From: Chamaesiphon sp.
Lineage (GTDB): Bacteria; Cyanobacteriota; Cyanobacteriia; Cyanobacteriales; Chamaesiphonaceae
Reading direction: 5' to 3'
Length of the DNA: 64,000 nucleotides
Assembly: GCA_965246715.1 (NCBI GenBank)
Contig: CBDFFH010000012.1
Location: forward strand, 32,001 to 96,000
The position numbers and the translations under genes were made by a program. The notes below the pieces were generated by a model, which saw only the letters and a list, made by a program, of their open reading frames with translations, ran no database searches and was not told the DNA's origin. This document shows, in pieces, positions 45,601-64,000 of the stretch; the stretch's first letter is position 1, and each line of letters opens with the position of its first letter.

Positions 45601-47096
45601 CTACGGCTCAACAATTCAGCAGTTATGCGACCACTTCGACCTATGATGACTACAAAGTCAAGGCGATCCTCAACGAGATCGATGGTTTCGACCATTCCGG
45701 TACCGTCAATAATGGTGATGCTCCGGCATTATTCGGCCTAAACCTCCAAGCTGTCAGCGTCGCTGAAAAAGAACCCGGCACATTATTTAACGGTGGTGGT
45801 TTTGATGCCAATGGTAACGCGCGTCCCGACCTCATTGCCGCAGTCAATCACGTAGACCAAAGTGTCGGCCTCATCCTCGACGAACTCAAAGCCAAAGGCT
45901 TAGACAGTTCGACCCTGGTAGTTTTAACCGCCAAACACGGTCAAAACCCCACTCAAGACCCCACAGTCGGCTTGAGTAGCGTCTTCAATGAAGCGGATGG
46001 GGCAGTGGGTGGTGATGGTAACTTAACCGCGATCGGTGCCCTTCTAGCCCGCAACGGCATCAAGATCGCTTCCGAGCGCGGTGGCGATACTTCTTCGCTG
46101 ATTTACTTGCAAAATCCAGCCGATACTGCCAAAGCAGTCGCACTGCTCAACAGTACCGACCCCAATAAGTATTCCTTTGACTCGGCGATCGATTCGATTA
46201 CCAATAAATCCTTCGGATCTGAAGACTTTTTGGCTCAAGGTACGGTCATCTCCGGTCAAGGCTTGATAAATGCCGGATTGGGCGACCCGACTAAAAACGA
46301 GCGTTCCCCCGACATCGCCGTCGCCCTCAACACTGGGTACTTCTTCGGTAACGCAGCCAAGAAACGCTCCGAGCATGGTGGTTTCACCGACCAGGATACG
46401 CATGTTGCCACGATCGTCGGAAGTGCGGGTTTACCCGACTATGCTAAGGGTACGGTCAACGATACCACCGTTTCCACTCAGCAAATCGCCGTCACCGCGC
46501 TCAAGGCACTCGGACTCGATGCTAACAAACTCACGGGTGCGGTAGCAGACGGTACGCAAGCTTTACCTGGTGTGCCCAACGTCGCACCAGACAAATTGGT
46601 TTTTGCTGGCAAGAGCTTACTCGATTTACGCGATAAAACTGGTGCTTCGAGCATCCAGTTTACAGCGACTCAAGATGCTGCTTACAAAAACTACATCGGG
46701 ATCTACCGCGTCGATAACGCCGTTGGTGACATCGACGGTATTAAAGTCGGCGATGCTAAGTACATTAAAGCTGCACTCGATCGCAGCGTAGCAAATCTGT
46801 ACAAAACCGACGACAAAACTATCACTGTTACTGGTAACGCGCTATATGCGTCCTACCTCATCTCCAATGGCACGATCGAAGAATTCAATGCCAAAAACCC
46901 CACCAACCTGGAGAAAGCGGCTGGTAGTGATGTCACCACGACACCGCATGTGTTCTTCAGCTTTGCCGGAGCTAATGCTGACGGTTTCGACCATGTGAAA
47001 TCGCTCGGTAACAATATGTTCGGCTTTGAAGACCAATGGGGCGGCGGCGATAAGGACTTCAACGATGCCATGTTGAAGGTATCTTACAAAGCTTAA
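42645..47096 (+). CDS. Tandem type I phosphodiesterase/nucleotide pyrophosphatase domains + DUF4114-like tail
   Basis: Domain 1: ADGLR, FPTFTTPN, TADHG, MHG. Domain 2: VDGLH, PSDSFPG, TAKHG, EHGG. Tail: FGFEDQWGGGDKDFND. Confidence 0.85.
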   Translation: MATNRNVIIFVADGLRAGSVTATDTPTLYSVQKDGVNFANSHSLFPTFTTPNASAIATGHYLGDTGDFSNTVYTGYPVINANGSVTPFIENDPILADLNANANLADPDTGFNKNNFLTEESLLAYARLNGYSTAAIGKLGPVAIFDVTQDTRTGNSTTANIIPKTVILDDSTYINSVANATTPPVTNANSGSQSAIPLPKTIADALDAAKLIGTSVPGTATVATTIGSIRNNQPAGNLTTAGTLNANTQQQQYFADATTKAILPQFVADIKAGTSKAFATVYWSRDPDGTQHNNGDAFNAADPGNNSLTIGINGPTAKKGVQDADANLKQLIDYLKATDDPANPGKKLYDNTDIFVTADHGFSTISRQAVGIKSFDANGVPTYINTTSYAASLDYYTTDATTGVKTPTVHKGFLPTGFVAIDLAKDLGTTLYDPNSPSAPVTTANINNIQYNVVDPTKGQSPASGNGVIGGTGKVTNGVIDKDTKVVVAANGGSDLLYVPSNDPALVKQIVALLAQKDYISGIFTDDKFGDVPGALKMSTIGLIGTAELPTPSIAINFKTFSTNPKDPNDPQATVEVADTPLQQGQGMHGSFGRGDTFNNMAAIGPDFKTAYVDTAPVSNADVVPTLASILGWKLPDTSGGANLVGRAATEALVGGPATTPSTTGVIQSAKTANGSATTLDYQTVGGTKYFDAAGVVGGTVGLTASVPAGQGATGPFKHVLVISVDGLHNSDLNAASLQSSLTNIKRLQKQGITYTNSFSAAPSDSFPGELNYITGADPGTTGVFYDKSYSRALYAPGTTLAQIKAGTVKPGTDVEFAENVDATWAGGGTLTGLDASGKAFDLSQLPVDSNGNPVYPNQYIKPGVNTIFDVASQAGLATAWSDKHPAAYTILAGPNSDPTKFDLKSGKVGSINDYYSLEINAPVAIDTTKKNPLADKSDYFKNLPGLVDKSTGTSFSNTNPAIATNFFNDATKGNATLFKAPPAGTTAQQFSSYATTSTYDDYKVKAILNEIDGFDHSGTVNNGDAPALFGLNLQAVSVAEKEPGTLFNGGGFDANGNARPDLIAAVNHVDQSVGLILDELKAKGLDSSTLVVLTAKHGQNPTQDPTVGLSSVFNEADGAVGGDGNLTAIGALLARNGIKIASERGGDTSSLIYLQNPADTAKAVALLNSTDPNKYSFDSAIDSITNKSFGSEDFLAQGTVISGQGLINAGLGDPTKNERSPDIAVALNTGYFFGNAAKKRSEHGGFTDQDTHVATIVGSAGLPDYAKGTVNDTTVSTQQIAVTALKALGLDANKLTGAVADGTQALPGVPNVAPDKLVFAGKSLLDLRDKTGASSIQFTATQDAAYKNYIGIYRVDNAVGDIDGIKVGDAKYIKAALDRSVANLYKTDDKTITVTGNALYASYLISNGTIEEFNAKNPTNLEKAAGSDVTTTPHVFFSFAGANADGFDHVKSLGNNMFGFEDQWGGGDKDFNDAMLKVSYKA

Positions 47097-49821: not shown

Positions 49822-50294
49822 GGGATTGATGTGGAGTAACTAAATATTTGTGAGCGATCGTTAACTTGGTTTATATAATACCGATTAACTTACCCCAAAT
49901 TGCCCGATCGTAAAATTTATCCGCTATTTGGGATGGTTGCTGTCTTCGCGCTAACATCGGCTGAAGATCCGCTCAGGTGAAAGATCGGCGATCTACTGAA
50001 AATTAGCGATTAACTCGATCGATATTAGCATTCGCCCTGCAAATCGGTAGTAACGAATTGACACTTTATTGACTATTTTCGATCGTCATCCAGCCGTAAA
50101 ATTTACACAAAATCGGGGCATAGTTATTATGCCCCAGCATTTATGGAATTCGATCGGTCACAGCAGATCTTGGCTAACTGGTAATTTTTATCCGCTGTCT
50201 GCAAGTTAGACACCTATCCGATTAGCTACACTTCATTCAACCCTAATCCGCTTATCTAAATATTGACCGATCGTTATAGGTATCGATCGTAACC

Positions 50295-51137
50295 CGATCG
50301 AATCTAGCCGGATGCCTGCGATTGGGTGGACATTTGACTGTGATGGCGGTTAGTGGCTATTTATGGGCAATGAATCCATTGGCGATTCCGTGCCTAATCA
50401 TTTATGGATTTAGCTTGGCGGCAATGTTTGCCACTATGCATGAGTGCTGTCACCGAACAGCATTTGCGAATAATCAAGTTAACGATCTCGTGGCTTGGTG
50501 GGCGGGGGTACTATCTTTTTACAACGGTACCTTCTATCGTCGCTATCACAAATGGCATCATCGCTACACCCGCATTCCTGGTAAAGATCCAGAATTGACC
50601 GATCGCACCCCAGATAGTCTATTGAGCTATGGATTGGATTTGAGTGGTGTGTATTGGTGGTGGTGCAAATTGCGGGGGCATAGTCGAATTGCTTTGGGTA
50701 TTATCGATGAATGCGAATATATTCCCGAAACGGCGCGGGTGGAAACAATTCGATCGATTAGGTTACAGTTGTTGGTGTACGCCATCGCGATCGGGGTTTC
50801 TGTAGGATTTGCTCAACCTTGGTTCATTACCTATTGGCTCCTACCACCGATCGTCGGTCAACCAATCCTGCGCTTTATCCTCTTGGCAGAACATACTGGC
50901 TGTAGCCTGGATGATAATTCTTTGACCAATACGCGGACAACTCTCACCTTTGCACCGCTGCGCTTTTTGATGTGGAATATGCCATTCCATGCCGAGCATC
51001 ACTTGTATGCCTCGATTCCGTTCCATGCTTTGCCTGCGGCACACGAACGATTAAACAGTCATTTTACTAACGTCGATCCTGGCTATGTATCGGTCAATCT
51101 GGGTATTATTAGCCAATTGGAATCATTGTGGTATTGA
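50295..51137 (+). CDS. Fatty-acid-desaturase-family membrane diiron enzyme, possibly 5'-truncated
   Basis: His boxes HECCH, HKWHH and HAEHH. Family-like RSNLAGCLRLGGH precedes the TTG at 50322, but an in-frame TAG (50277) lies upstream and there is no ATG. Confidence 0.8.
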   Translation, partial: RSNLAGCLRLGGHLTVMAVSGYLWAMNPLAIPCLIIYGFSLAAMFATMHECCHRTAFANNQVNDLVAWWAGVLSFYNGTFYRRYHKWHHRYTRIPGKDPELTDRTPDSLLSYGLDLSGVYWWWCKLRGHSRIALGIIDECEYIPETARVETIRSIRLQLLVYAIAIGVSVGFAQPWFITYWLLPPIVGQPILRFILLAEHTGCSLDDNSLTNTRTTLTFAPLRFLMWNMPFHAEHHLYASIPFHALPAAHERLNSHFTNVDPGYVSVNLGIISQLESLWY

Positions 51138-52171
51138 GTAATGCAAAATGTTTGACATTGCCAAACTTTGAGTTGCAATGTGGCGTAACCTTGCCCCAGG
51201 CTGAATTAGTCTATCAAACCTATGGCGAGCTGAATGTCGATCGATCGAATGTCATTATCTACCCGACTTCCTATGGTGCCCAACACACGGATATTGATTG
51301 GCTGATTCGACCCGACGGCATTCTCGATCCGACGAAATGGTTTATTATCATCCCCAATATGTTTGGCAATGGTCTCTCGACCTCACCCAGTAATAATCCG
51401 GCTTGTAGATTGGCCGAGCAGGGTTTTTGGTTTACACATGTAGATAATGTTCGCGCTCAGGCGCAGTTATTAACTCAGGTTTTTGGGATCGATCGATTGG
51501 CAGCGATCTATGGTTGGTCGATGGGAGCGCAGCAAGCATATCATTGGGGAGCGATGTTCCCCGTTGGCGGAGCCGCTGAGAATGAGATTCGAGTGGAACG
51601 GATTGTGGCATTGTGTGGCACGGCGAGAACTACCGACCACAATCGAATTTTTCTCGAAAGCCTACGTTGTGCCCTTACTGCCGATCGAACCTGGACGGGT
51701 CATGGGTTTGACGGGATACCAGAACAGGGCTTTCGGACATTTGCGAGGATCTACGCGAGTTGGGCGGCTTCTCAGGCATTTTATCGAGTAAAAATCTATC
51801 TCCAACTGGGCTATGCATCGCTGGATGATTATCTGTGGCGGGGTTGGGAAGTGGGCTACCGCAAGCGCGATCCGCATAATCTGGTAGCAATGCTGGATAC
51901 CTGGTTGCGCTGCGACATCAGCAATAATTCTATTTATCAAAGCGATATCGATCGAGCATTAGCCTCGATTACAGCCAAAACTCTGGTCATGCCCTCTGCA
52001 ACGGATCTATATTTCACGCCAGCAGACTGCGCTGCTGAAGCTGCGAAGATTCCCGCTGCTCGATATCTGCCCATCCCCTCGATCTGGGGACATCGGGCGG
52101 GCAATCCTTATCAAAATCCTGAAGATGCGGCTTTTATTCGCACTGCGGTGCAAGAGTTGCTAAGCGAATAA
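51128..52171 (+). CDS. MetX (homoserine acetyltransferase)-like alpha/beta hydrolase
   Basis: L.YQTYG.LN, NMFGNGLS.SPSN, GWSMG elbow, DLYF and WGH motifs; lacks the HALTG of true MetX. Confidence 0.85.
   Translation: MVLSNAKCLTLPNFELQCGVTLPQAELVYQTYGELNVDRSNVIIYPTSYGAQHTDIDWLIRPDGILDPTKWFIIIPNMFGNGLSTSPSNNPACRLAEQGFWFTHVDNVRAQAQLLTQVFGIDRLAAIYGWSMGAQQAYHWGAMFPVGGAAENEIRVERIVALCGTARTTDHNRIFLESLRCALTADRTWTGHGFDGIPEQGFRTFARIYASWAASQAFYRVKIYLQLGYASLDDYLWRGWEVGYRKRDPHNLVAMLDTWLRCDISNNSIYQSDIDRALASITAKTLVMPSATDLYFTPADCAAEAAKIPAARYLPIPSIWGHRAGNPYQNPEDAAFIRTAVQELLSE
51564..51587. repeat. 24-nt SDR5-like in-frame insertion
   Basis: TTGGCGGAGCCGCTGAGAATGAGA is 18/24 identical to the reconstructed outer element at 12004-12048 and adds 8 aa between FP and RVERI. 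Confidence 0.6.
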
Positions 52172-52186
52172 CTCGATCGACTGACT

Positions 52187-53038
52187 TTACTTGTTGGACG
52201 ATGGAGAAAGGGTTACACCTGTCGCGTAGGGACTAATTCCTTTTTCAGCAAGAGTTGCTTCGATCTCTAAGCGTTTGACTTTGAGCTGGTAATCCCGAAC
52301 TAGAGGATCGATTGCTTTGATGTTGATTGCTTCTGCTTCAAGTGTGGCTTTTTTTGCTTGGATTAGTTTGAGCTTAGATGCTTCGTTTGCGGTTGCTGCT
52401 TTAAGGGCAGATTGTTGTGCTAATTGGTCATTAAAGGATTTGCCGAAGTCTGCAATGCCAGTAATTCTCACCTCTTGAATACGAACCATTTTGCCATATT
52501 CTTTTTGGAGAGCTGCCTTTACTTTTTCCGCAACATCAGGGAGGTTAGAGTTGAAAGTTGCAGGATCTAAACCTGCACCAACTTGGATAATTGCATTTTG
52601 AGTCGAAGCATATAAGTTTTGAGATTTAAAATGCTCTTCATCAACTCTCAAGACTTTAGCAACTGTACCAATAGATTCTTGAGTTGGTTCAAATGTAATA
52701 ATCACCTGAATATTAATTGCACCTTTGATATTTTGGGCTGCGAAGTGAATTGATTGATCGATTTCTTTGCCCTGATCTGTTCTTGAAGAATAGTCTACTA
52801 ATTGTTGACCAGTTGAATAAATCAAAACTTTATCAAATGGGCCATAGTTAAATTTACCAGAATAAATATCTACTTTGTCTTTTTCCCCGCCCGAAGCATG
52901 ATAAACTGCTGCAACCTGTCCCGCACTAAGTGTTTCCCAGCTTGTAACTCCGAAAATCGCACCAGAGGAACAAGATGTTGAACTTGTCGCAACTGCTACA
53001 ACTAAAGTTAAAAAACCAATTTTTTTGAAATCAAACAT
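52187..53038 (-). CDS. SPFH/Band-7-like protein with possible lipoprotein signal
   Basis: Start MFDFKK at 53038; hydrophobic stretch then STSC; AGQVAAVY..GG; C-terminal coiled coil; AT-rich. Confidence 0.55.
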   Translation of the reverse strand: MFDFKKIGFLTLVVAVATSSTSCSSGAIFGVTSWETLSAGQVAAVYHASGGEKDKVDIYSGKFNYGPFDKVLIYSTGQQLVDYSSRTDQGKEIDQSIHFAAQNIKGAINIQVIITFEPTQESIGTVAKVLRVDEEHFKSQNLYASTQNAIIQVGAGLDPATFNSNLPDVAEKVKAALQKEYGKMVRIQEVRITGIADFGKSFNDQLAQQSALKAATANEASKLKLIQAKKATLEAEAINIKAIDPLVRDYQLKVKRLEIEATLAEKGISPYATGVTLSPSSNK

Positions 53039-53444
53039 TTTTGTTCGTTCTTTGTAGATAATGTTGAAGTGATTCAAATGGAAAATTTGCACCAAAAATT
53101 AAGTCGTCACTACTATTTTTAAAAGCAAGCTCAATTGAACTTATCTGTTTTGACGTAAGATTTATAAAATAGATTGAATCGATCGATTCATATTCGACAT
53201 GATTACTAGCATCTATAAATTGCTTCAAATATATTTTTTTGCGTTTCCCAGTTTTCAATAATTTTAGCGACAAAAATACATCGCCAACAGGAATACCGAA
53301 CAATAAAGCAATTCTTCCAAAATCTATTATGGGTGCATACCATGTAGCACCATTAACAATATTATTAGGAAGACTAAAGCTACCGATAATTATTCCAAGT
53401 TGGATCGAGGCAATTATTGCCCAATTTTTAGGACTATGCTTCAT
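53031..53444 (-). CDS. Hypothetical two-TM protein
   Basis: Two hydrophobic segments; its stop overlaps the start of the next gene; very AT-rich. Confidence 0.55.
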   Translation of the reverse strand: MKHSPKNWAIIASIQLGIIIGSFSLPNNIVNGATWYAPIIDFGRIALLFGIPVGDVFLSLKLLKTGKRKKIYLKQFIDASNHVEYESIDSIYFINLTSKQISSIELAFKNSSDDLIFGANFPFESLQHYLQRTNKNV

Positions 53445-53705
53445 AGATATTTATCGTCAACGAAAGCACAGACAAATTGTATGTTGCATGTTATCTAAAT
53501 GATTTCCTCTGGTTTTGCTAACAATATTATTATGCCCAAAATCATTGAAAGATATCATCTATTTTATCTAAACAGCAATTGTGTAATATAGGATTGAGCC
53601 ACATAGCTCCGCTATCACTAAGCTAACCAGCTATACACGTCTCTAAATCACTTACCTGCTTAAAATCTCATTTCTTTGCCGTTTTATTCAAATCGTTTGA
53701 TTTCG

Positions 53706-53797
53706 ATCGCTCGAGGTATCCGTTACTTTCTGACTTCCTGCACCGATCTATTTGGTACTCAACGCGCCAAGATGGTGCCAGCCCAAGCGCTCGATCT
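53706..53797 (+). pseudogene. Diverged duplicate of the glnT 5' end
   Basis: 53718-53797 matches 54010-54089 with 7 mismatches in 80 nt. Confidence 0.85.
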
Positions 53798-53976
53798 CTA
53801 AATATCAAGCTACCACAGCAAATCTACATCGTACATCTCCAATATCCCATCTGCGTACACAGCACCATTCTAACATTCTTAACAGAGTAAGTATTTCAGT
53901 TCATAGCGATCGAATTAGATCGGCGCAGTCACTTATTCTAGAAATTTGACCCGATCGTCGTCTACACCCATCACCT

Positions 53977-54507
53977 ATGCTGCTATCTGAAATCGCTCGC
54001 GATCGCGGGATCCGTTACTTTCTGATTTCCTTCACCGATCTATTTGGCACCCAACGAGCCAAGATGGTGCCAGCCCAGGCGATCGATCTGATGGCAGTGG
54101 ATGGTGCGGGTTTTGCGGGTTTTGCTGCTTGGTTGGACATGACTCCCGCCGATCCCGATATTTTGGCGATGCCCGAGGCCAGTCAAATGATTCAATTGCC
54201 CTGGCAGCCGGATGTAGCTTGGTTGCCAGCGGATGTACTGACGATCGATAGACAACCGCTCAGACAAACACCTCGCTTAGTGCTCAAACGGGTGTTAGAG
54301 CAAGCCGCAGCACGGGGATATCGCGTGAACACAGGGGTAGAGTGCGAGTATTTTTTACTGAGTGCGGATGGGGAAAGGATTTTTGACGGGTTGGATCGAT
54401 CGAGTAAACCTTGCTACGACCAACAAGCATTGATGCGTCGCTTCGATATTATTGTGGGTAACTACATCCGATCGATTACTGCGTGCCTGTTCAATCTAAT
54501 TAATTAG
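53977..54507 (+). pseudogene. glnT: GmaS-like type III glutamate-ammonia ligase, 3'-truncated
   Basis: YFLISFTDLFG.QRAK.VPA.AI..M..DGAGFAGFA, GVECEYFL and KPCYDQQALMRR; homology ends near aa 160 of an expected about 440. Confidence 0.85.
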
Positions 54508-54605
54508 GTTTGAGATCCTGATATAGTATAAGATGTGCTCATTCTAAATTCGATCGCGGCAAGTTTTGGATCTGTAGAATTAAAGAGAAAAACTGGCAAG
54601 CAGAT

Positions 54606-54884
54606 ATGCGTCTAATTGCTATCAAAAATCTCCGCAATGAGGCTAGTCGATATCCAGATGCAAAGAAAGCGATTGAAACTTGGTATCTGATTGTAAAGAG
54701 TGCTGATTGGTCTAGTTTAGAAGATGTCCGGCAAGTGTACCGAGATGCTGAATCTGCTGGTAATTTTACTGTTTTCAATATTAAAGACAATAATTATCGC
54801 TTGATTGTGGGAATTAATTATGTAAAAGGGCGAATCTATTTTAAGTACTTTTTGACTCACGCTGAATACGATAAGGATTTTTGA
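54606..54884 (+). CDS. higB: HigB-family toxin
   Basis: MRLIA.K.L, W....DV, VFNIK.NNYRLIV.I.Y and FLTHAEYDK motifs. Confidence 0.9.
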   Translation: MRLIAIKNLRNEASRYPDAKKAIETWYLIVKSADWSSLEDVRQVYRDAESAGNFTVFNIKDNNYRLIVGINYVKGRIYFKYFLTHAEYDKDF

Positions 54885-54888
54885 AAAA

Positions 54889-55293
54889 ATGACCCAAATT
54901 ATTGATTTGAAAGTGTACGGTCAACTCGTTGCCGAAGTAAGCCCAAAGGTAATTGAAACTGAGGATGAGTATGAGCAATTTCTAGCTGTGGCAGAAAGGC
55001 TGACTTTCAAGCAGGTTCAAACACCTGAAGAGTTGGCATTATATGATTTAGTAACGATGTTGGTGGAAACATACGAGGCGAAACATTACCCGATCGATCG
55101 ATCGTCGCCTGTGGAAGTTTTGGAGCATATCATTGAAGCTAGTGGGATCGATCGATCCGATCTATCTGAGATTTTTGGCTCTGGTGATGCTGTGGATCGA
55201 GTTTTGGCGGGACAGGAGTTAATTAATCCCAGTCAGGCGAATGCTTTGGCACACAGATTTAAGTTGTCTCCAGAGATATTCTTGAATACCTGA
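54889..55293 (+). CDS. higA: HigA-family antitoxin (XRE HTH)
   Basis: PKVIETEDEYE, LVETYE..HYP, then an HTH; 4 bp after higB. Confidence 0.88.
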   Translation: MTQIIDLKVYGQLVAEVSPKVIETEDEYEQFLAVAERLTFKQVQTPEELALYDLVTMLVETYEAKHYPIDRSSPVEVLEHIIEASGIDRSDLSEIFGSGDAVDRVLAGQELINPSQANALAHRFKLSPEIFLNT

Positions 55294-56013
55294 AACCATC
55301 CGATCGATTAAAGGTATTCAGCAAGTAAGATCGAGAAATACTATTATTAAGGTACTATAAAAAAATCTATCTATGGCTATTAACACGCTTCCAGAAATAG
55401 TCAATCTACTCAAGGATACACTTCTTGCTGATGCTCAGGTGATGGAGCTAGAAATTCCTGAATCAGAAGATCGAGCTTTTGCCATCCAAATCAATCCTGA
55501 CAATGGGTATGCTGCATGGGATTTAATGTATTGCCAGATTGCTATAACTGGAAGATATCCTGTTATCGTTCAAGCTGATAGTTACTATCCAGTGATGACT
55601 AATGATGGCAAGTATGAGATGTTATTGAAAAATTGGGAAGAGGGTACTAGAGATAGTGATTTTTTTAGTCGCACTTATTATGAAGAAGATCGAAATAGAG
55701 AAGGTGGCGTTGCACCCAATCAAATCATAGAGCGATCGAAATCATTTGACGTAGATAAGTATATTGAAGCAGAAGACGAAGAATTTTTATTATGGCAGTT
55801 TAACGAAGAAGAAATAGAAGATATATTAATAGGAGAGATTGAAAGTCTGGAAGAAAAATATGGTAAAGCACCAGAGATAGAAGAGATGCTAGCAGCACTT
55901 GGATTAACTGACAAAGAATTGGGTGTAACTATTACAGGGGAGGATATCCATGAAGAAAAACTTGAGAGGTGGCTATTTGAATGGGAATTAGCTAATGGAG
56001 ATTACGAAAAAGC

Positions 56014-56840
56014 GGCGTTGCTGGATTAGGATATGATCTAAGGCGATCGAGAGAAGTAACAAGAGCAAATATCTAAATGGAATGTCCTGAATGTAGATCG
56101 TCTAATATCAATAAAAATGGGCGAATAAAGGGAAAGCAGAACCATATTTGTAAAGACTGCGGACGGCAATTTATAGATTGTTATGAAGCACACAGAGGAT
56201 ATTCACCACAAATCAAGCAGAAATGTTTGTCAATGTATGTTAATGGGATGGGATTTCGAGCAATAGAAAGAGTAATGGGTGTGCATAATACAACTGTCAT
56301 GGATTGGGTGAAGCAAGTAGGGGGAAATCTCCCAGATTACTATAATTCAGACCAAATACCAGAAGTTGGTGAGTTGGATGAGTTAGAGACGTTTGTTGGC
56401 TCAAAAAAAACAAGATCTGGCTCTGGACGGCAGTAAATCACTTTCAGATGGGTATTTTAGGATGGGTATTAGGCGACCACAGTGCTAAGACATTTAGACC
56501 GCTATGGGAGAATTTGGTAAGTACATGGAAATGTTATTTTTATGTGACGGATGGGTGGAGGGTCTATCCAATATTTATTCCAGATGGTGACCAAATCGTG
56601 AGTAAAACTTATATGACAAGAGTTGAGGGTGAAAACACTAGGCTCAGACATTACTTAGCTCGATTAAAAAGAAAAACATTATGTTATTCTAAGTGCGAAC
56701 AAATGCTAAAGCATTCTATTAGATTGTTAATTCATTATCTTAAATTTGGTGAAGTACCAACTCCTAATTCAGTTAGTTCTGGCGATCGACGGCACAGATT
56801 ACCTCTCGATCGCCAAATCATATCTTAATCCAGCAACGCC
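56014..56840 (+). mobile_element. IS1-family element, 827 bp
   Basis: IRs GGCGTTGCTGGATTA(G/A)GATATGAT; 8-bp TSD GAAAAAGC at 56006-13 and 56841-48. Confidence 0.93.
56077..56828 (+). CDS. IS1 transposase expressed by -1 frameshift
   Basis: CPEC..CKDC zinc finger, HTH and ELDE. A -1 shift at the A8 run (56403-56410) gives GSKKNKIWLWTAVNH...TDGW...VEGENTRLRHYL. Confidence 0.9.
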
Positions 56841-57424
56841 GAAAAAGCTAGTAGTTATGAAGGTACGATTTACGAAAGAGATTGGTTAGGTGGATATTAT
56901 CAACGTCATGGACTTCCTGATTATAGTGAATATGCAATTATTCTATTCCCAACTCAAAATAGTTGGGAAGTCTTAGCTTACATGCATTGGTATGGTTCTT
57001 CAGGATCGGGTAGCGATGGGGCGATCGCTTTTCTCAAGAGATGGCATGATAAATATCAGGCGGAACTAGTATGTCATTTCGGGACAGTATTAAATCTCAA
57101 TGTTGGCAAACTTCCACAAACACCAATGGAAGCATTCAATCTAATGGTCGAGCAATATACACTTTCCGACTATGCAATGCGTCATAATTTTAATATGAGA
57201 GAATATGCTCGCTATCTAATGAAAGTCGATTATTGGTACTTTCACGATCGACCGTAAATCTTCCAGTCTAAATTAATTTGTGAGTTTTGCAGTGACCACG
57301 AGCAAAACCATGCAGAGAAATAACTTCAGTCAATTATTGTCCGATCTCAATCGATCGTTGATTTGGGATGGTTCGATCTGTGGGATGCTTCGATCGATTG
57401 CCCAAAACTTGCCCAATCTAAATG

Positions 57425-58783
57425 CTAGAAAAACTTGAGATATCGCTGAATTTCCCAATCGGAGACGTGACTGTGATACTCTTCCCACTCCTGGGTTTTA
57501 AAGTCGATATAAGTTTTGTACATCAACGATCCCATCACCTTTTCACTGAGTGGATCGGCAGCAAAAGACTCGATCGCACCTTCCAGATTCCGGGGTAAAC
57601 AGCTAATCCCCATCTTTTGCAAATCTGCCACCGAATGCTTATACATATTCTCCGTATGTGGCTCACCCGGATCGAGTCCTTCCCGAATGCCTTCGAGTCC
57701 AGCGGCTAACAGCATTGCGGCTCCTAGATAGGGATTGCTGGCAATATCCGCCGCTCGGCACTCTACCCTGCCCCCGGGTAACGGAATTCTCAGCATATTG
57801 GTGCGATTGTTATTGCCATAGCAGATGTACACGGGTGCCCAAGTAAATCCTGACATACTGCCTCTGGCGATCAGCCGCTTGTAGCTGTTGACTGTCGGTG
57901 CGATCGTCGCACAAATTGCTGGAGCATGGCGCAAAATGCCCGCAATAAACTGGTAGCCTAATTTTGACAAGCCGCAACCGCGCGGATCTTCAGATTCCTC
58001 AAATAGATTCTTGCCCGTCTCAATGTCGGCGAGGGACATATTGTAGTGGGCACCACTGCCTGTGCGATTGGCAAAGGGTTTGGGCATAAAGGTGGCGAAA
58101 AAGCCGTGTTTGCGAGCAATTTCCTTGACCATCAGCCGAAAAAACACCAGTCGATCGGCCATTTTTAGCGCATCGCAGTAAGCGAAATCGGTTTCAAACT
58201 GACCGTTGCCGTCCTCATGGTCGAAGGAATACACATCCCAGCCCATCTGATTCATCGCTTCGACGATCTCCGTCACCCAGGTGTAGTTGTCGAGTAACCC
58301 TTGGATGTCATAACAGGGTTTATCTAGGACATCTCGATCGCTAATCGGGAGCGGTTTCCCTTCAGTAGTCTCCTTGAGCATAAAGAACTCAGTTTCAATC
58401 CCTAAATTGAACTGGAAGCCCATAGCAGCCGCTTCTGCCAGTACCTTTTTCAAAATGCCGCGACAGCAAGCATCAAACGGTTTGCCCTCCAAATAGAGAT
58501 CGCTAGCAAACCACACCACTTCAGGCTTCCAAGGTAAAACGGTGGCAGTAGCCGGATCGGGCATGGCGGCAACTTCTTCATCGCTGACATCTTGCGGCAC
58601 GCCGTCTAAGGCTGCGCCTGTGAACAGTTCCGAGCCTTGCATCATCTGTCCAAAATGTGACAAGGGCACTGCTTTGGCTTTACACATCCCATGTATATCG
58701 ACAAAGCTGGCTAGCGCATACTTGATGCCTTGTGCTTCGAGGGTAGATTTGAGCGATTGGAGTTCGGGTGAGAGTTGAGTCAC
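57425..58783 (-). CDS. glnT: Type III glutamate-ammonia ligase / gamma-glutamyl-amine synthetase
   Basis: EDGNGQFE, MPKPF, TGSGAH, NSYKRL, NNRT and ECRAAD..NPYL. FTGAA replaces GSI FDGSS and TWAP replaces GSI YEAP. Confidence 0.9.
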   Translation of the reverse strand: MTQLSPELQSLKSTLEAQGIKYALASFVDIHGMCKAKAVPLSHFGQMMQGSELFTGAALDGVPQDVSDEEVAAMPDPATATVLPWKPEVVWFASDLYLEGKPFDACCRGILKKVLAEAAAMGFQFNLGIETEFFMLKETTEGKPLPISDRDVLDKPCYDIQGLLDNYTWVTEIVEAMNQMGWDVYSFDHEDGNGQFETDFAYCDALKMADRLVFFRLMVKEIARKHGFFATFMPKPFANRTGSGAHYNMSLADIETGKNLFEESEDPRGCGLSKLGYQFIAGILRHAPAICATIAPTVNSYKRLIARGSMSGFTWAPVYICYGNNNRTNMLRIPLPGGRVECRAADIASNPYLGAAMLLAAGLEGIREGLDPGEPHTENMYKHSVADLQKMGISCLPRNLEGAIESFAADPLSEKVMGSLMYKTYIDFKTQEWEEYHSHVSDWEIQRYLKFF

Positions 58784-58800
58784 GATCGTGCCAATGATGA

Positions 58801-59826
58801 TTATAGTGATTTGACGATCGAATCGTCATAGAGCGATTCTGACTTGAGTGGTTGCGGAATAATCTTAAATTCTTCTGCCGCCTTAGCCGTCAGTTCGAGA
58901 TTGCCAATTAGACTCTTTGGATTGCTCTTGTCAAACGCCATCGCCTTATTGGTTGCCAGATCGAACACCTTGACACCCGACAACTGTTCCTTAACTTCAG
59001 CAACAGTTACGCCCATTTTTCCACTAGCAATTTTTAGGGCTTCTGGATCTCCAGCATTAACTAGTTTGACGGCTTTATCCACAGCGCGGAAGTAGGCTTG
59101 CAGGTCTTTTTGGCGAGTTTGGATGAATTTGTCTCGCACGACCAGCACATCTGCAACCAAGTTGGTACCCTTAGTCGAAAAGACAACATTGCCGCCACCT
59201 AGCTTGGCATTTTTAGTCAGAAAAGGTTCGTAGGTAACAGCTAAATCCACCTGCTTGGCAGCAAAAGCCGTAGCCGATTCTGCTGCTGTCATATCCTTAA
59301 CCTTGAGGTCGGCTTCTGTTAAACCAGCCTGTTTTAAATAAGCTTGGAGCAAGACTTTTGTAAACAGTAAGTTTTCCCTAGCGAGACTTTTACCTTTGGC
59401 ATCTTTAGGGGTTGCAATATTCTTACCGATAATCCCGTCGGCACCATCGGAATAATCCACGAGATAAACGATCTTCAGTGAGGGATCTTTTGCTGCTGCC
59501 TGAATTGCATCACCAGAAGTCAACCAGGCAATATCCAACTTCCCGGCTAACATCGCCGTGATTTCTTCAGTGGCACTTTGAAAAAATATTTCCTGAACAT
59601 TCAAGCCTTCTTTGGTAAATAACTCCTGTTTCGTCGCTACATAGTGGCTAGAGTAACCGACCCAGCTATTGAGTCCTGAGGCGATCGGTTGGGATGAAGC
59701 TGCTGGCGTGGAACTAGCACTAGGAGCGGTAGTGGTTGTATTCGGTTGCTGTGTACAAGCAATAGTTAAGGTGAAAGCAATCAAAGCTAAAAAAGTCCAG
59801 CGCAGCCAAGAAGATAGTTTGAGCAT
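58801..59826 (-). CDS. NitT/TauT-family ABC substrate-binding lipoprotein
   Basis: Start MLKLSS; TIAC lipobox; SWVGY, DYSDGADGI and TYEPF motifs. Confidence 0.9.
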   Translation of the reverse strand: MLKLSSWLRWTFLALIAFTLTIACTQQPNTTTTAPSASSTPAASSQPIASGLNSWVGYSSHYVATKQELFTKEGLNVQEIFFQSATEEITAMLAGKLDIAWLTSGDAIQAAAKDPSLKIVYLVDYSDGADGIIGKNIATPKDAKGKSLARENLLFTKVLLQAYLKQAGLTEADLKVKDMTAAESATAFAAKQVDLAVTYEPFLTKNAKLGGGNVVFSTKGTNLVADVLVVRDKFIQTRQKDLQAYFRAVDKAVKLVNAGDPEALKIASGKMGVTVAEVKEQLSGVKVFDLATNKAMAFDKSNPKSLIGNLELTAKAAEEFKIIPQPLKSESLYDDSIVKSL

Positions 59827-59918
59827 GAAGATAGATAAATAATGGAGCAATTAAATAAATAAGATGCAGCTTAAATCCTGAAAATAGAGCTAAATACTGG
59901 ATCGATTTCAGTAATAAA

Positions 59919-60815
59919 TTAATGACGTACTTGGTCTGCCCAAGGTGTGAGTCTGCGGGATAACCATTTCAATCCATAGTCAATTGCTAAACCGATCGCA
60001 CCAATTAAGACAATACAAAATAGGACTTTATCAGTTTGTAAAAACCGTTGGGACTGGATAATCTTAAAACCCAGCCCATTTTGAGCAGCCAATAATTCGG
60101 CAATCACCACGAAGTTCCAAGCCCCAGAAATGTTCACGCGGAGCGTGTCGAGCACACTTGGAAAAGTAGCTGGTACAATCACCTTCCACAAAACATCCCA
60201 ACGACTGGCACCCATCGTATAGGCGACATTAATCATCTCGTTGGGAATGAACTTGACTGCATCAGCCACCATAATGATGTTGTAAAGCACTACTCCCAAA
60301 CTAATAATTAGAATTTTTGACGGTTCCCCCAATCCCACCCAGATGATAATCAGCGGTACAAAGCCCGTAATCGGCATATAGCGCACCGTGCCGACGATCG
60401 GCGAGAATAGGCTATCCATGCTGTAAAAAGTCCCGATCGCTAATCCCACGGGTACGCCAATTAAGGCCGCCAGCATAAAACCAGCAAACACCCGACCGCA
60501 ACTAGCTAACACATCTCCACCTAGGTCGTTTTCGGCGAACATGGTGAATCCGGCAGTTAGCACGGCTAAAGGAGTGGGTAAAAAAGTCGATGGCACGAGT
60601 TGGAGCGAACTGGCGATCGTCCACAGCGTCAGCGGTATGAGCAAAGACGAGGCTACAAGTAACACCGACAACCGTTTCGGAAATCCCTGGCGGATACTCC
60701 AAAAGATTGAAGGGGAAAGGTAGCGATGTTTGCGGGTCGGCGGTTTAGGAATAGGGACGGAAATGGATTCAATCACTACAATTAACTCTAATGAAGGACT
60801 TGTGGTTAGATGCAA
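59919..60815 (-). CDS. NitT/TauT-family ABC permease (start possibly GTG 60776)
   Basis: FLPTP..V, RYMP, AYTMGA, AELLAA..GLG motifs. Confidence 0.92.
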   Translation of the reverse strand: MHLTTSPSLELIVVIESISVPIPKPPTRKHRYLSPSIFWSIRQGFPKRLSVLLVASSLLIPLTLWTIASSLQLVPSTFLPTPLAVLTAGFTMFAENDLGGDVLASCGRVFAGFMLAALIGVPVGLAIGTFYSMDSLFSPIVGTVRYMPITGFVPLIIIWVGLGEPSKILIISLGVVLYNIIMVADAVKFIPNEMINVAYTMGASRWDVLWKVIVPATFPSVLDTLRVNISGAWNFVVIAELLAAQNGLGFKIIQSQRFLQTDKVLFCIVLIGAIGLAIDYGLKWLSRRLTPWADQVRH

Positions 60816-60881
60816 AATCGAGAACTGCTAATTTTTGTGAGGACATATAATAATATCTCAACTATTCAACTCGATATCCTT

Positions 60882-61658
60882 CTAAGATTTATGTTTGCGA
60901 TGAACTTCTTGTGGACATCCTGGCTGTCGGCGGCGATCGAGATATTCTCCTAAGATGTGCTGATACTTCTCTCGTCCAAAGGTTTGATAGTGTCCTGGAT
61001 AAACTATTTCAATCGGCAGCTTTTGCAGTCGTTCGTAAGTGCAGATATAGTCGGAAATATTGCTGCAATGCAGCTCGTCAAGCAATTCACCATCATAAAT
61101 TACGTCTCCAGAAAATAATGCTTGCGATCGATGGTCATATAGAGCGATACAACCCGTTGAATGTCCGGGTAAATGTAAGACTTCCAACACCCGATCGCCC
61201 AAATCTAATACGTCCCCATCTTGCAAAATTTGGGTAGGTTCGGCAGCTCGAAAAGTGTATTGTTCCACGCTAAAACCAGGATGAGGCACTCGATCGAAAT
61301 GGTCTGGATGAATCCAGCCTGGTTGAGCGCAGAGGGCTTCATGAGCATCTCCCTCCCGCAAGGCTTGCGCTTCTGCGGCATGGATGGCACGACGATCGAA
61401 TTCATGAATTCCCCCCGCATGGTCGAAATGGATATGGGAAGCGATCGCCAGTAATGGTTTATCGATTAATTCTGCGATATGTTCGCGCAGGCTGGCTACT
61501 CCCAAACCCGTATCCACCAACAAATCCCGATCGCGCCCTTTAATCAGCCACAGATTGGCGCGGTTGTACCAATAGTAATGAGGCTCGGTAATCAGATATA
61601 GTCCCTCTGCCATGCGTTGCGTTGCAAACCAACGATCGCAGACTTGTCTGGTTGCCAT
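60882..61658 (-). CDS. MBL-fold hydrolase (MBLAC2-like)
   Basis: Start MATRQV with AGGAG RBS; VDTGLG, SHIHFDHAGG, PGHSTG, FSGD and PGH motifs. Confidence 0.9.
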   Translation of the reverse strand: MATRQVCDRWFATQRMAEGLYLITEPHYYWYNRANLWLIKGRDRDLLVDTGLGVASLREHIAELIDKPLLAIASHIHFDHAGGIHEFDRRAIHAAEAQALREGDAHEALCAQPGWIHPDHFDRVPHPGFSVEQYTFRAAEPTQILQDGDVLDLGDRVLEVLHLPGHSTGCIALYDHRSQALFSGDVIYDGELLDELHCSNISDYICTYERLQKLPIEIVYPGHYQTFGREKYQHILGEYLDRRRQPGCPQEVHRKHKS

Positions 61659-61662
61659 CTCC

Positions 61663-62478
61663 TTACTCCTGGCGCATGACTTGCAGAACCTGTCGTTTAA
61701 TCTCGATAAACTCTGGTGACAACTTGATCTCAAGTTCGCGATGTTCGGGTAGATGGATGGGAATCTCGCTCTTAACCTGACCCGGACGACAACTCAATAC
61801 ATATATCCGTTGGGACAGATAGATAGCTTCCTCAACATCGTGAGTAATCATCAGTACCGTCACAGGGGTTTTCGACCAGAGTTCTAGTAAAAATTCTTGC
61901 ATCTGTTCTTTGGTTTGAGCGTCCAAGGCACCAAATGGTTCGTCCATCAATAGCACAGCAGGTTCGTTCGCTAAGGCTCTGGCGATCGCTACCCGCTGTT
62001 TCATCCCACCTGATAACTGCTTGGGATAACTATGGGCAAATTTTTCTAGCCCCACCACATTCAGGAAGTAACCAACCTTGTCCCGCCGATCTGCTTTAGA
62101 CATGTGCTGAAATTGCAACCCAAAGGCAATATTCTGGGCAACTGTCAACCAGGGATAGAGCGTATAACCTTGAAACACCATGCCGCGATCGGAACCAGGT
62201 TTACCCGTGACCGATCGACCATCAACTAATACCGCTCCAGATGAAGGTGGCGTAAGTCCAGCGATAATATTGAGCAAAGTTGATTTGCCACAACCAGATG
62301 CTCCGACTAGGCAAATAAATTCTCTGGGGAAGATTTCAAGATTGATATCTTGCAGCACTGTTAACTGCTGACTGTCTCGGATGAGATAGGATTTGGAAAG
62401 ATTCTCAACCGCTAGTTTTGGGGCTTGGCGATCGGGTAACTTGAGGGCAATATTTTGGGCGAGTGTGCTGCTGTTCAT
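61663..62478 (-). CDS. NitT/TauT-family ABC ATP-binding protein
   Basis: GASGCGKS, LSGGMKQR, DEPFGALD and ITHD motifs. Confidence 0.95.
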   Translation of the reverse strand: MNSSTLAQNIALKLPDRQAPKLAVENLSKSYLIRDSQQLTVLQDINLEIFPREFICLVGASGCGKSTLLNIIAGLTPPSSGAVLVDGRSVTGKPGSDRGMVFQGYTLYPWLTVAQNIAFGLQFQHMSKADRRDKVGYFLNVVGLEKFAHSYPKQLSGGMKQRVAIARALANEPAVLLMDEPFGALDAQTKEQMQEFLLELWSKTPVTVLMITHDVEEAIYLSQRIYVLSCRPGQVKSEIPIHLPEHRELEIKLSPEFIEIKRQVLQVMRQE

Positions 62479-62643
62479 TGCTTATGGATAGTGATAAATC
62501 GCTAACGATTCAGAGCGTAAATGTATGTTTTCGAGAATTTCATAGATCGATCTAGGCTCTAGAATTCTTAGCCGCTCTGCACTCTGCTTTTAGTCGATCT
62601 ACTAACCTACAACTTATTAAATATCAGGATGGGGATCGCAAAA

Positions 62644-62674
62644 TGTTCCGAACGAACAATGTTAGTGGCGAACA
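62644..62674. promoter_or_regulatory. Tandem palindromic operator candidates TGTTM-N5-GAACA
   Basis: TGTTCCGAACGAACA (62644-58) and TGTTAGTGGCGAACA (62660-74) in the divergent promoter region. Confidence 0.45.
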
Positions 62675-62731
62675 CTCTCGATCGAGCTTTACCTGCTATT
62701 TTTTAAGACATCAATTTGCAGTTGTAAACGA

Positions 62732-63709
62732 TTGAAAATGTCACCTAGTAACAAAAACACTGCGGCAATTGCCTATACCTTCACTGCATATGTTCTCGGC
62801 ATTCTGTCGATCTGCTCTCCATCCTGGCAACTGAATGCACTTGGAGTAATCGCGATCGTCCATAGTTTAGTCACCGCCACCAATTTGGCGCACGAATTTA
62901 TTCACGGCAACATTTTCAAAGATCGCACAGCCAACGCTTGGTGGGGGCAGTTGATGACCCATCTGAATGGAGCTTGTTATGCTCCCTGGGAAAACTTGAC
63001 CGATTATCACCTCAACCATCATCTAGATCGGGCGGATGTGGTGAGATTGGATGCGATCGATTACATGAAACAGCTCCATCCCGTGCAGCGATCGATTTAT
63101 GTGGCGTTGGAGTGGTTGTACTTTCCCATCCTAGAGATGGATCTGCGCTGGCAGATTATTCTCGACCCCTGGCTGGATGAGAGCAAGCGATCGCGATTAG
63201 GCCGAAATTTGTTGCTCATCAGCTATCGGACTCTGGCCTTTAGTATCTTGGCCTGGATCTCGTGGCAGGCTGTTTTACTTTATTTTCTCGCCTATATTTC
63301 GTTTGTAAATGTGATGCGATTTGTGGATGCATTCCAGCACACTTATGAGTATGCGTTACCAGGACAGGAGTTAATTAAACGCGATCGTACATACGAGCAA
63401 GCCAACACTTTTTCTAACTTAGTATCCGTTCGATCTCCGTGGCTGAATTTGCTCTTGCTCAATTTTGGCTATCACAATGCCCATCACCACAACATGAGTT
63501 GTCCGTGGCACGATTTACCAGAATTACATAACAAGCTTTATGGGGATAGCGATCGCAATGTAATACCTCTATCTCAGCTAGTTTTCAACTATCATCGCTT
63601 TCGGATCGATCGATTATTTAATGGCCAAGGTGAGGTAAATACAGCAGCAGGCATCGATTTAAATAATTTTATTGGTGGTGTCACCGTTTCATTTTTGACT
63701 CCGCCATAA
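62732..63709 (+). CDS. Fatty-acid-desaturase-family membrane diiron enzyme
   Basis: His boxes HEFIH, HLNHH and HNAHH; FQH motif. Confidence 0.88.
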   Translation: MKMSPSNKNTAAIAYTFTAYVLGILSICSPSWQLNALGVIAIVHSLVTATNLAHEFIHGNIFKDRTANAWWGQLMTHLNGACYAPWENLTDYHLNHHLDRADVVRLDAIDYMKQLHPVQRSIYVALEWLYFPILEMDLRWQIILDPWLDESKRSRLGRNLLLISYRTLAFSILAWISWQAVLLYFLAYISFVNVMRFVDAFQHTYEYALPGQELIKRDRTYEQANTFSNLVSVRSPWLNLLLLNFGYHNAHHHNMSCPWHDLPELHNKLYGDSDRNVIPLSQLVFNYHRFRIDRLFNGQGEVNTAAGIDLNNFIGGVTVSFLTPP

Positions 63710-63751
63710 TTTCAGCCGGAGGCTATTTCTTTCGCTCGACACAAGCTAATT

Positions 63752-63840
63752 AATGTTAATTCTAGTTAAGGCTATTTGCTTCGTTCTAGTATCGCCAACG
63801 ATTTCAGTGTCTAGGCTCTTCATTATCCCGAACTGATGTT
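63752..63840. repeat. Degenerate copy of the AACGTCAGTTCGGG-type MITE
   Basis: TTATCCCGAACTGATGTT end, plus the reverse complement of the CTAGAACGAAGC..CCTTAAC segment seen at 47395-47420. Confidence 0.6.
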
Positions 63841-64000
63841 AATTAGGTTTCAATGCAATTAATACTTGTCCGGTAGACACCATTTGTCCTGGCTGACAAT
63901 AAACAGCCTCGATCGATCCCGCTTCATTAGCCTCGATCGTCATTTCCATTTTCATCGCTTCGAGGATGACTAGTCGATCTCCTGACTTCACCACATCGCC
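63839..64000 (-). CDS. C-terminal biotinyl-carrier domain, probably of urea (guanidine) carboxylase; partial
   Basis: GDVVKSGDRLVILEAMKMEMTIEA...GQMVSTGQVL with the EAMKM biotinylation motif. Enzyme identity is inferred from context. Confidence 0.65.
   Translation of the reverse strand, partial: GDVVKSGDRLVILEAMKMEMTIEANEAGSIEAVYCQPGQMVSTGQVLIALKPN

Follow-up and report, generated by a model that had tools for sequence, protein, structure and literature searches.

A locus of Chamaesiphon sp. that may combine three nitrogen-scavenging units

Introduction

We describe a group of genes in a stretch of 64,000 nucleotides from the cyanobacterium Chamaesiphon sp. (assembly GCA_965246715.1, contig CBDFFH010000012.1, positions 32,001 to 96,000; G000:C12:32001-96000 in our labels), referred to below as the window. 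An earlier note on its sequence had read positions 50295 to 64000 as one undescribed pathway for scavenging organic nitrogen, made up of GlnT ligases, desaturase-like enzymes, hydrolases, an ATP-binding cassette (ABC) importer and a biotin-dependent carboxylase. We find that the genes belong to three units: a guanidine carboxylase operon of known type, a decayed copy of a gene triad that is undescribed but widespread, and a set that is intact, undescribed and linked to guanidine. The assembly (6.1 Mb, 99.8% complete) is the genome under study, G000, and was compared with a sample of 300 other cyanobacterial genomes; G labels denote genomes, L labels loci, and coordinates given with C12 are those of the contig. 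Literature searches, with most subscription journals outside their coverage, found no paper that describes either the triad or the intact set.

Results

A guanidine carboxylase operon reaches into the window

The last gene of the window, on the minus strand, is represented by its 3´ end (63839..64000), which encodes a biotinyl domain. The earlier note had placed a convergent biotinyl gene here, and its end at 63839 and its domain stand; the gene itself belongs to a riboswitch-led operon of its own. It continues to G000:C12:99450 and encodes a protein of 1203 amino acids (aa), neither AccB nor pyruvate carboxylase, that matches the urea carboxylase family over its full length (TIGR02712, 1829 bits against a cut-off of 1304, positions 1-1200) and also exceeds the cut-offs of TIGR03424 and TIGR03425. 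Asp711 (VDFTGD) aligns where the urea enzyme of K. lactis has Asn (INFTGD), a residue that we take to be Asn1330 and the position that determines specificity. Asp instead of Asn marks guanidine carboxylases, according to one study (PMC12186494).

Beyond the window follow cgdB (C12:101335-101988), cgdA (C12:102129-102857) and a guanidine-I riboswitch (C12:102945-103064; RF00442, 79.4 bits). A GTA-N8-TAC box 55 bases further up (C12:103119-103132) is assigned to the NtcA type on what we presume to be the consensus. Judged by sequence, the biotin enzyme is the guanidine carboxylase (Gca) of the known route, with cgdAB and the guanidine-I riboswitch. Two genes without Pfam or NCBIfam matches lie on the opposite strand between cgdB and gca (L001:9579-11084 (+)) and may break the operon. 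The amidase domain of allophanate hydrolase was not found in G000, where the best amidase matches reach 32% and the C-terminal domain PF21986 is all that is present; gdmH was not found in this genome either, and urease is encoded elsewhere in it. Stand-alone PF21986 domains without an amidase occur at L001:13206-13631 (-) and in L008, L010 and L256, and in L008 and L010 they adjoin the substrate-binding protein (SBP) gene of the intact unit described below.

A des1-hydrolase-glnT2 triad is broken in this genome

The second arm of the earlier note, with des1 at 50322-51137, a MetX-like gene at 51128-52171 and a glnT start at 53977, is present; two of its genes are truncated and unrelated sequence has been inserted. 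The first, des1 (50292..51137, plus strand; PF00487), encodes a MocD-type membrane diiron oxygenase and lacks about its first 30 codons; its sole start is TTG at 50322. Similarity to full-length homologues begins at their residue 30 (position 50292), with an in-frame stop just upstream, and contigs of related strains carry other sequence from 50291/50292, exactly where this similarity begins. The His boxes HECCH, HKWHH, EH and HAEHH are intact and match the motifs labelled 'hydrocarbon oxygenase (MocD)' in PMC2593844; neither Des1 nor Des2, its counterpart in the intact unit, fits any of the acyl-lipid desaturase rows shown (delta 6, 9, 12, 15). A model of a full-length Des1 homologue (predicted local distance difference test score 86) has a membrane diiron fold, with AlkB and SCD1 among its top structure matches.

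The hydrolase gene (51128..52171, plus strand) encodes a MetX-like alpha/beta hydrolase of the PRK07581 family (NF005757, 474 bits against a cut-off of 332). It scores 94 bits against 500 in the equivalog model of homoserine acetyltransferase MetX, and satisfies the PRK07581 model instead. Its catalytic residues (Ser131-Asp293-His322) are intact, and this Ser-Asp-His triad is invariant in 18 sequences. The nearest PDB chains are 5e4y (E 4e-48) and 5d6o (3e-46), all others being at 3e-10 or weaker.

Low-GC genes for an SPFH/band-7 protein (PF01145) and a hypothetical protein have been inserted next (52187..53444, minus strand, GC 0.39); this insert is missing from the triad in other genomes. 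A partial duplicate of the glnT2 5´ end follows at 53700..53800 on the plus strand (83/101 bases identical; tblastn 82% over 33 aa). The glnT2 gene (53977..54507, plus strand) is an orthologue of gmaS, the gamma-glutamylmethylamide ligase gene, and a pseudogene: the fragment of 176 codons is truncated near codon 159, covers positions 2-160 of TIGR03105, and loses similarity near 54454, ahead of the amine-binding residues (before Gln175). Its second half was not found in the 99.8% complete assembly. The fragment matches the full-length protein of L031 at 67.5%, and the best PDB match of the latter is RhGmaS (7cql, 621 bits). The break is probably real rather than an assembly artefact, because an identical contig from run X1, which may be the source sample, bridges it (54069-55068). 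Further downstream lies an inserted cassette (54606..57258, plus strand) of a HigB toxin gene, a likely antitoxin, a hypothetical gene, IS1 (insA/insB) and a DUF4253 piece, with Pfam matches PF09907, PF12759 (below cut-off), PF03400 and PF14062. The triad is thus broken in G000, with glnT2 and des1 truncated and the hydrolase intact, and orthologues of mgsC and mgsB were not found in this genome.

An intact unit of importer, hydrolase, ligase and oxygenase-fold genes

Between these two units the operon ATPase-MBL-permease-SBP-glnT (62478 to 57425, minus strand) and a divergent desaturase-fold gene (62732-63709) are present as they had been placed before. Here the ABC importer, the metallo-beta-lactamase-fold hydrolase (MBL), GlnT1 and Des2 are all intact. 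The ATPase (61663..62478, minus strand; PF00005) is followed by the MBL gene (60882..61733, minus strand; PF00753, motif HIHFDH, probable start 61658), the permease (59919..60815, minus strand; PF00528) and an SBP of NMT1/SsuA type (58801..59850, minus strand; PF09084). An atlas search with the MBL returned generic names only. The SBP is 56-80% identical to its closest partners in Des2/MBL loci and only 26-30% to the GimA-type SBPs that are linked to gdmH or uca; it is the only member of its family in G000, and G273 has both this and the GimA type.

The ligase gene glnT1 (57425..58783, minus strand; YSFDHEDGNGQFETDF) is intact and encodes a gamma-glutamyl ligase that resembles GmaS (TIGR03105, 591 bits against a cut-off of 470) and differs from it in the amine pocket. 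Its best PDB matches are 9qur (424 bits) and 7cql (339 bits), type I glutamine synthetase (GSI) reaching at most 265. As had been noted, Trp stands at the Glu flap (W315) and FDGSS is lacking; Asp50' is lacking as well, and the catalytic Asp177 and Glu186 positions are kept. The earlier view of GmaS-type ligases in place of ammonia-using glutamine synthetases (GS) is supported. From the alignment, GlnT1 appears to work like GmaS; it is not filed as GmaS because the pocket residues Gln175 and Asn188 of RhGmaS are replaced by Ser186 and Asp199, Ser being found in 10/10 other GlnT1-type loci. The exchanges of Gln to Ser and Asn to Asp predict a pocket that is larger and more acidic.

On the other strand, des2 (62732..63709; PF00487, no NCBIfam match) encodes a second family of membrane diiron oxygenase-fold proteins, with the His boxes HEFIH, HLNHH, QH and HNAHH intact and its closest match (87%) in a Chamaesiphon genome. 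The divergent promoter between the ATPase gene and des2 contains two TGT-N9-ACA palindromes in tandem (window 62645-62675), which are possible regulator sites. In L002, from a Chamaesiphon assembly, the genes of the intact unit are in pieces, through decay or assembly error. Scans for sigma-70 promoters and terminators gave results at or below chance, the guanidine-II pattern scan gave no match, and a strict NtcA box was found neither upstream of des1 or glnT2 nor in the ATPase-des2 gap of G000.

Distribution of the triad

GlnT genomes were defined by a match to TIGR03105 with an E value of 1e-120 or lower, which holds for 21/300 genomes, or 22 with G000. GmaS of the GlnT2 type is found in 16/300 (56-75% to the glnT2 fragment). 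All 16 have des1, which occurs in 24 genomes altogether, and 15 have the hydrolase (16 genomes in total), never more than 1 kb from des1 in these 15. In 10 of the 16, glnT2 is a neighbour, and in 6 it is unlinked. An mgsC orthologue (68-100%) is present in 5/22 GlnT genomes, all five without des1, and in 0/16 genomes with des1 and GlnT2 (the search covered the 22 GlnT genomes, and a 37% partial match in G253 was left uncounted), so that des1 and mgsC are exactly complementary among GlnT genomes (16/0/0/5). Among the best 80 of 501 metagenome matches, the hydrolase follows des1 in 45 of the 64 loci with enough flank, and glnT2 is found in 29 of those 45. A triad was also found on a Leptolyngbya plasmid.

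The methylamine pocket of GmaS consists of Tyr147, Gln175, Asp177, Glu179, Glu186, Asn188 and Lys30', with Trp300 in the flap (RhGmaS, as given in PMC7948447). Full-length GlnT2 proteins keep all seven pocket residues, and the flap Trp as well. The triad of G267 is flanked by frmA and fghA, and that of G183 is preceded by tmm and a tdm-like gene; the latter gene occurs in 3/301 genomes, twice with the triad and once with mgsC. In G225, L153 and L166, des1 and glnT2 occur together without the hydrolase, whose absence fits an accessory role like that of MgdL (PMC12508155). A strict NtcA box is present in 4/16 triad promoters against 1.5 expected, a weak excess.

Picocyanobacteria have super-operons of the order gdmH-hypA-hypB-(glnT1)-ABC-(Rieske, TIM barrel)-des1-hydrolase-glnT2 (L194, L204, L208, L132/L133, L220, L130), with a guanidine-I riboswitch at the head in L130, L132 and L220. 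A canonical mgd-gmaS-mgsABC cluster was seen in two cyanobacteria (L122, L123). A further GS-like family of 500 aa (IQGDHEDAPGQLELNF; L121:448-1950, L126:2298-3800, L246:12770-14272) stands in cyanobacteria beside tmm, tdm-like or PF11927 genes and is a candidate dimethylamine ligase; PF11927 is a family that we take to be dimethylamine monooxygenase alpha-like.

Distribution of the intact unit and its link to guanidine

The families of the region co-occur in other genomes, as had been proposed, in patterns that differ between the arms. In the 300 genomes, des2 is found in 6 and MBL in 7; both are present in 5, and lie at most about 3 kb apart in 4. GlnT1 is optional, since G273 and G277 carry the intact unit without it. 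Genes of both arms occur together in L004, L005, L031, L194, L204, L208 and the L132/L133 genome, and are elsewhere mostly apart or alone.

Of 80 des2 loci, 33 include ABC or MBL genes. A guanidine marker (riboswitch motif or uca, cgd or atzF parts) is present in 10 of these 33 and in none of the other 47. In L040, L047 and L245 a guanidine-I riboswitch confirmed by Rfam immediately precedes ATPase-SBP-MBL-glnT1-permease, des2-SBP and ATPase-SBP-permease, respectively; in L243, des2 lies within a gdmH-hypAB-ABC locus, and in six proteobacterial loci, three of them with riboswitch motifs, it is found beside uca genes. Of the other genomes sampled, 8 contain des2 or MBL, and every one of them has gdmH or uca; for comparison, gdmH alone is found in 12/91 sampled genomes, and in 12/30 of the same class. 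Of the other GlnT1-type loci, 6/10 lie in gdmH or riboswitch operons. A cysteine hydrolase of the BiuH/TrtA family with Glu at the Gln position is a frequent partner in other loci and was not found in G000; we assume this Glu to be the signature of guanylurea hydrolases. Plasmid searches gave one des2 relative and no GlnT1 match above 45% among the matches listed.

Relatives of des2 also occur in 12 loci with a protein that we take to be heme-oxygenase-like (it has no Pfam match), mostly beside histidine kinases (L013, L021, L025, L027, L046 and 7 more), and in 6 isoprenoid clusters (L055, L058, L062, L067, L070, L073). Such combinations may point to synthesis of a signal or a meroterpenoid.

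Other features

A GC-rich gene of the window (42645-47096, plus strand) encodes a 1483-aa protein of tandem phosphodiesterase/alkaline-phosphatase-type domains with DUF4114, which probably serves phosphorus scavenging. No glnA (GSI) was found in G000 or in G273, of the same genus, and glnN (type III GS) is apparently the sole ammonia GS in both; in G000 it lies at C29:146065 to the contig end and C16:370-726.

Discussion

A patchwork of three units

The single undescribed pathway of the earlier note is rejected because the modules have different distributions, the triad being found in 16/300 genomes and the genes of the intact unit in 6-7/300; the carboxylase is moreover part of a described route and the second arm is broken. 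Scavenging of organic nitrogen and desaturase-fold proteins that act on small molecules, which the note had also proposed, are both supported. The best explanation, in which we place about as much belief as doubt, is that three units for nitrogen scavenging have come to lie side by side as a patchwork: the Gca operon, an intact set that probably supplies it with guanidine, and a broken triad that in relatives probably acts on methylamine. Gene identities, breaks, co-occurrence, riboswitch links and pocket residues are established, and from these we infer all of the substrates and reactions that follow.

In relatives of G000, the triad is likely to convert methylamine to glutamine and formaldehyde by an undescribed, O2-dependent route. 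GmaS would make gamma-glutamylmethylamide, and Des1 would hydroxylate its N-methyl group with electrons that probably come from ferredoxin, because no reductase is linked. The hydrolase may then speed release of the one-carbon unit as formaldehyde, or as formate after a second oxidation, leaving glutamine. The triad would in this way stand in for MgsABC and MgdABCD.

The intact unit is likely, though less securely than in the case of the triad, to import and oxidatively dealkylate a substituted guanidine, thereby feeding the Gca operon. The ABC system may import an N-alkylguanidine such as methylguanidine, the weaker of the two mechanisms proposed here; Des2 would hydroxylate the carbon next to the nitrogen, as MgdH does with another fold, and MBL would cleave the resulting carbinolamine or amide-type product. 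Gca and CgdAB would take over the guanidine, and the allophanate probably decays to urea, the substrate of urease. As an optional ligase, GlnT1 could capture an amine set free in the process or a guanidino compound.

Several observations weigh against these proposals. For the triad, 8 of the 24 genomes with des1 have neither glnT2 nor the hydrolase; in Cupriavidus a des1-hydrolase pair (37% and 46% identical) stands beside an alcohol dehydrogenase and rubredoxin without any GlnT; a link to formaldehyde genes was seen in 1/16 triad genomes, and G000 has frmA with no match to fghA. The nearest structures of the hydrolase, 5e4y and 5d6o, are presumably acetyl esterases and not lyases, and with esterase kinship an N-formyl intermediate, or an ester upstream, is easier to reconcile than a lyase. 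For the intact unit, a guanidine marker is missing from 23 of the 33 des2-ABC loci, and 6 of the 10 marker-positive loci come from related proteobacteria and are as kin not independent. A riboswitch was absent from 18 of 21 such loci scanned (two of which probably repeat another locus) and from the upstream region of the unit in G000. Relatives of des2 occur in terpene and signalling clusters too, contexts that are interspersed in a quick tree in which the ABC-linked members do not form one clade; distant MBL relatives lie in polyamine and amide clusters; and in G273 the unit lacks glnT1 and is far from uca, with a separate GimA-type importer elsewhere in the genome.

Alternative explanations

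Rather unlikely is the view that the intact unit handles a ureide, an amide or a polyamine-type compound unrelated to guanidine, and that it lies near guanidine genes only because nitrogen-starvation genes cluster. The neighbours of distant MBL relatives (39-45%) do include polyamine ABC systems, aldehyde dehydrogenases, agmatinase or a dimethylformamidase-like gene; BiuH/TrtA-family cysteine hydrolases and a PuuE-like deacetylase are among the partners in other loci; and most des2-ABC loci are without riboswitch. Mere clustering is, however, at odds with the three loci in which orthologous ABC genes or des2 directly follow a guanidine-I riboswitch, and with the lack of any guanidine marker in the 47 other des2 loci; one of five MBL contexts examined also adjoins cgdAB-uca. 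We consider it unlikely that Des1 and the hydrolase act before GmaS, freeing methylamine from dimethylamine, an N-methylamide, a carbamate or methylguanidine for GmaS to trap. This order would suit the esterase-like family of the hydrolase, the picocyanobacteria in which the triad ends riboswitch-led gdmH operons, and G183, where tmm and the tdm-like gene beside the triad, in the absence of a PF11927 match, leave the dimethylamine step without an enzyme. It would, however, make glutamylmethylamide a dead end without mgsABC, and the exact complementarity with mgsC favours a step after GmaS.

Another possibility is that GlnT1 glutamylates guanidine itself for hydrolysis by MBL, which would be a third guanidine route beside Gca and GdmH. 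The larger and more acidic pocket with its Ser in all ten other loci, the location of 6/10 GlnT1-type loci in guanidine operons, and a Gca-bearing genome in which the SBP of the window has no other importer of its family beside it are consistent with this. We nevertheless regard it as quite improbable: guanidinium is by established chemistry a poor nucleophile, GlnT1 is found alongside complete GdmH or Gca routes, and MBL occurs without GlnT1 in 5/7 genomes. Least credible by far is that the desaturase-fold genes encode common lipid desaturases, with GlnT1 as the glutamine synthetase of the cell. G000 does lack glnA, both Des proteins carry PF00487, and the best fold matches of the Des1-family model are desaturase-fold membrane proteins. 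Against this, G000 has glnN and G273 manages with glnN alone; the Glu flap and Asp50', by which GS is defined, are lacking in GlnT1; Des1 fits the motifs of MocD and not those of desaturases (PMC2593844); and the DesA and DesB models give scores of 33 and 27 bits, compared with 500.

One broader reading, tentative and not the one we would back, takes desaturase-fold membrane diiron monooxygenases of cyanobacteria, fed by photosynthetic ferredoxin, to be N-dealkylases that serve nitrogen scavenging: Des1 would turn glutamylmethylamide directly into glutamine, Des2 would free guanidine from alkylguanidines, and GlnT1 would be a new kind of gamma-glutamyl ligase acting on guanidino compounds. Taken jointly with the rest, and with the same reserve, the Des1 route would be a two-enzyme methylamine path that replaces Mgs and Mgd.

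Implications

Methylamine and guanidines are common forms of dissolved organic nitrogen. The gmaS gene serves as a marker of the N-methylglutamate pathway, yet 16 of the 21 other GlnT cyanobacteria are without mgsC and have the triad; if the proposed route is true, phototrophs can obtain nitrogen from methylamine by a short route that has not been described. As to which natural compounds supply guanidine, the intact unit names concrete proteins for this question. As a source of genes, G000 is well suited for the intact unit and ill suited for the triad. A TIGR03105 gene is present in Synechococcus elongatus, whose Synpcc7942_1713 falls in the MocD group (PMC2593844), so that the triad idea is testable in a model strain. 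In a further study glnT is placed in the NtcA-2 module, and the supplement match for Synpcc7942_1712 is to an unrelated small-gene module (PMC11420160). A GS gene beside gdmH in Synechococcus WH8020 has been noted and left uncharacterised in another (PMC12704784).

Comparison with known systems

The first unit shares the guanidine-I riboswitch, cgdA, cgdB and a carboxylase with the active-site Asp with the guanidine carboxylase pathway (riboswitch, Gca, CgdAB and AtzF, as described in PMC12186494 and PMC12508155). It differs in that G000 lacks a GimABC-type importer and the amidase domain of allophanate hydrolase, of which the C-terminal domain alone is present, that urease is encoded elsewhere, and that two unrelated genes separate cgdB from gca. 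The window SBP, at 26-30% identity, is not an orthologue of that of the GimABC guanidine importer.

With the N-methylglutamate pathway (GmaS, MgsABC and MgdABCD; RhGmaS, 7cql; PMC7948447) the triad shares GlnT2, which is orthologous to GmaS and in intact relatives has the whole methylamine pocket. In contrast to this pathway, mgsC is missing in all 16 triad genomes, which have a MocD-type oxygenase and a MetX-like hydrolase instead, and the copy in G000 is truncated. Routes such as Ipu, Atd/Tdn and Puu proceed by gamma-glutamylation, oxidation and hydrolysis, and likewise have a GS-like ligase that masks the amine and an oxygenase that acts on the glutamyl amide; by comparison, our locus has no hydrolase of glutamine-amidotransferase type, P450 or Rieske dioxygenase, and the predicted product is glutamine.

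The rhizopine oxygenase MocD, to which loss of a methyl group from a heteroatom is ascribed (PMC2593844, PMC10107442), belongs to a group whose cyanobacterial members share three His-box motifs with Des1. Unlike in the MocD system, mocE/mocF and other moc genes are absent at the locus and were not seen in the triad neighbourhoods examined, the partners being GmaS and the hydrolase, and the nearest rhizobial plasmid homologues of Des1 are at most 38% identical. A parallel in logic is the demethylation of methylguanidine by MgdH/MgdL, in which the N-methyl group is hydroxylated to a stable carbinolamine and a lyase is required for its cleavage (PMC12508155). MgdH is a soluble 2-oxoglutarate dioxygenase, whereas Des1 and Des2 are predicted to be membrane diiron proteins with an alpha/beta hydrolase or an MBL as partner; in both systems an oxygenase and its partner enzyme are tied to a guanidine carboxylase operon.

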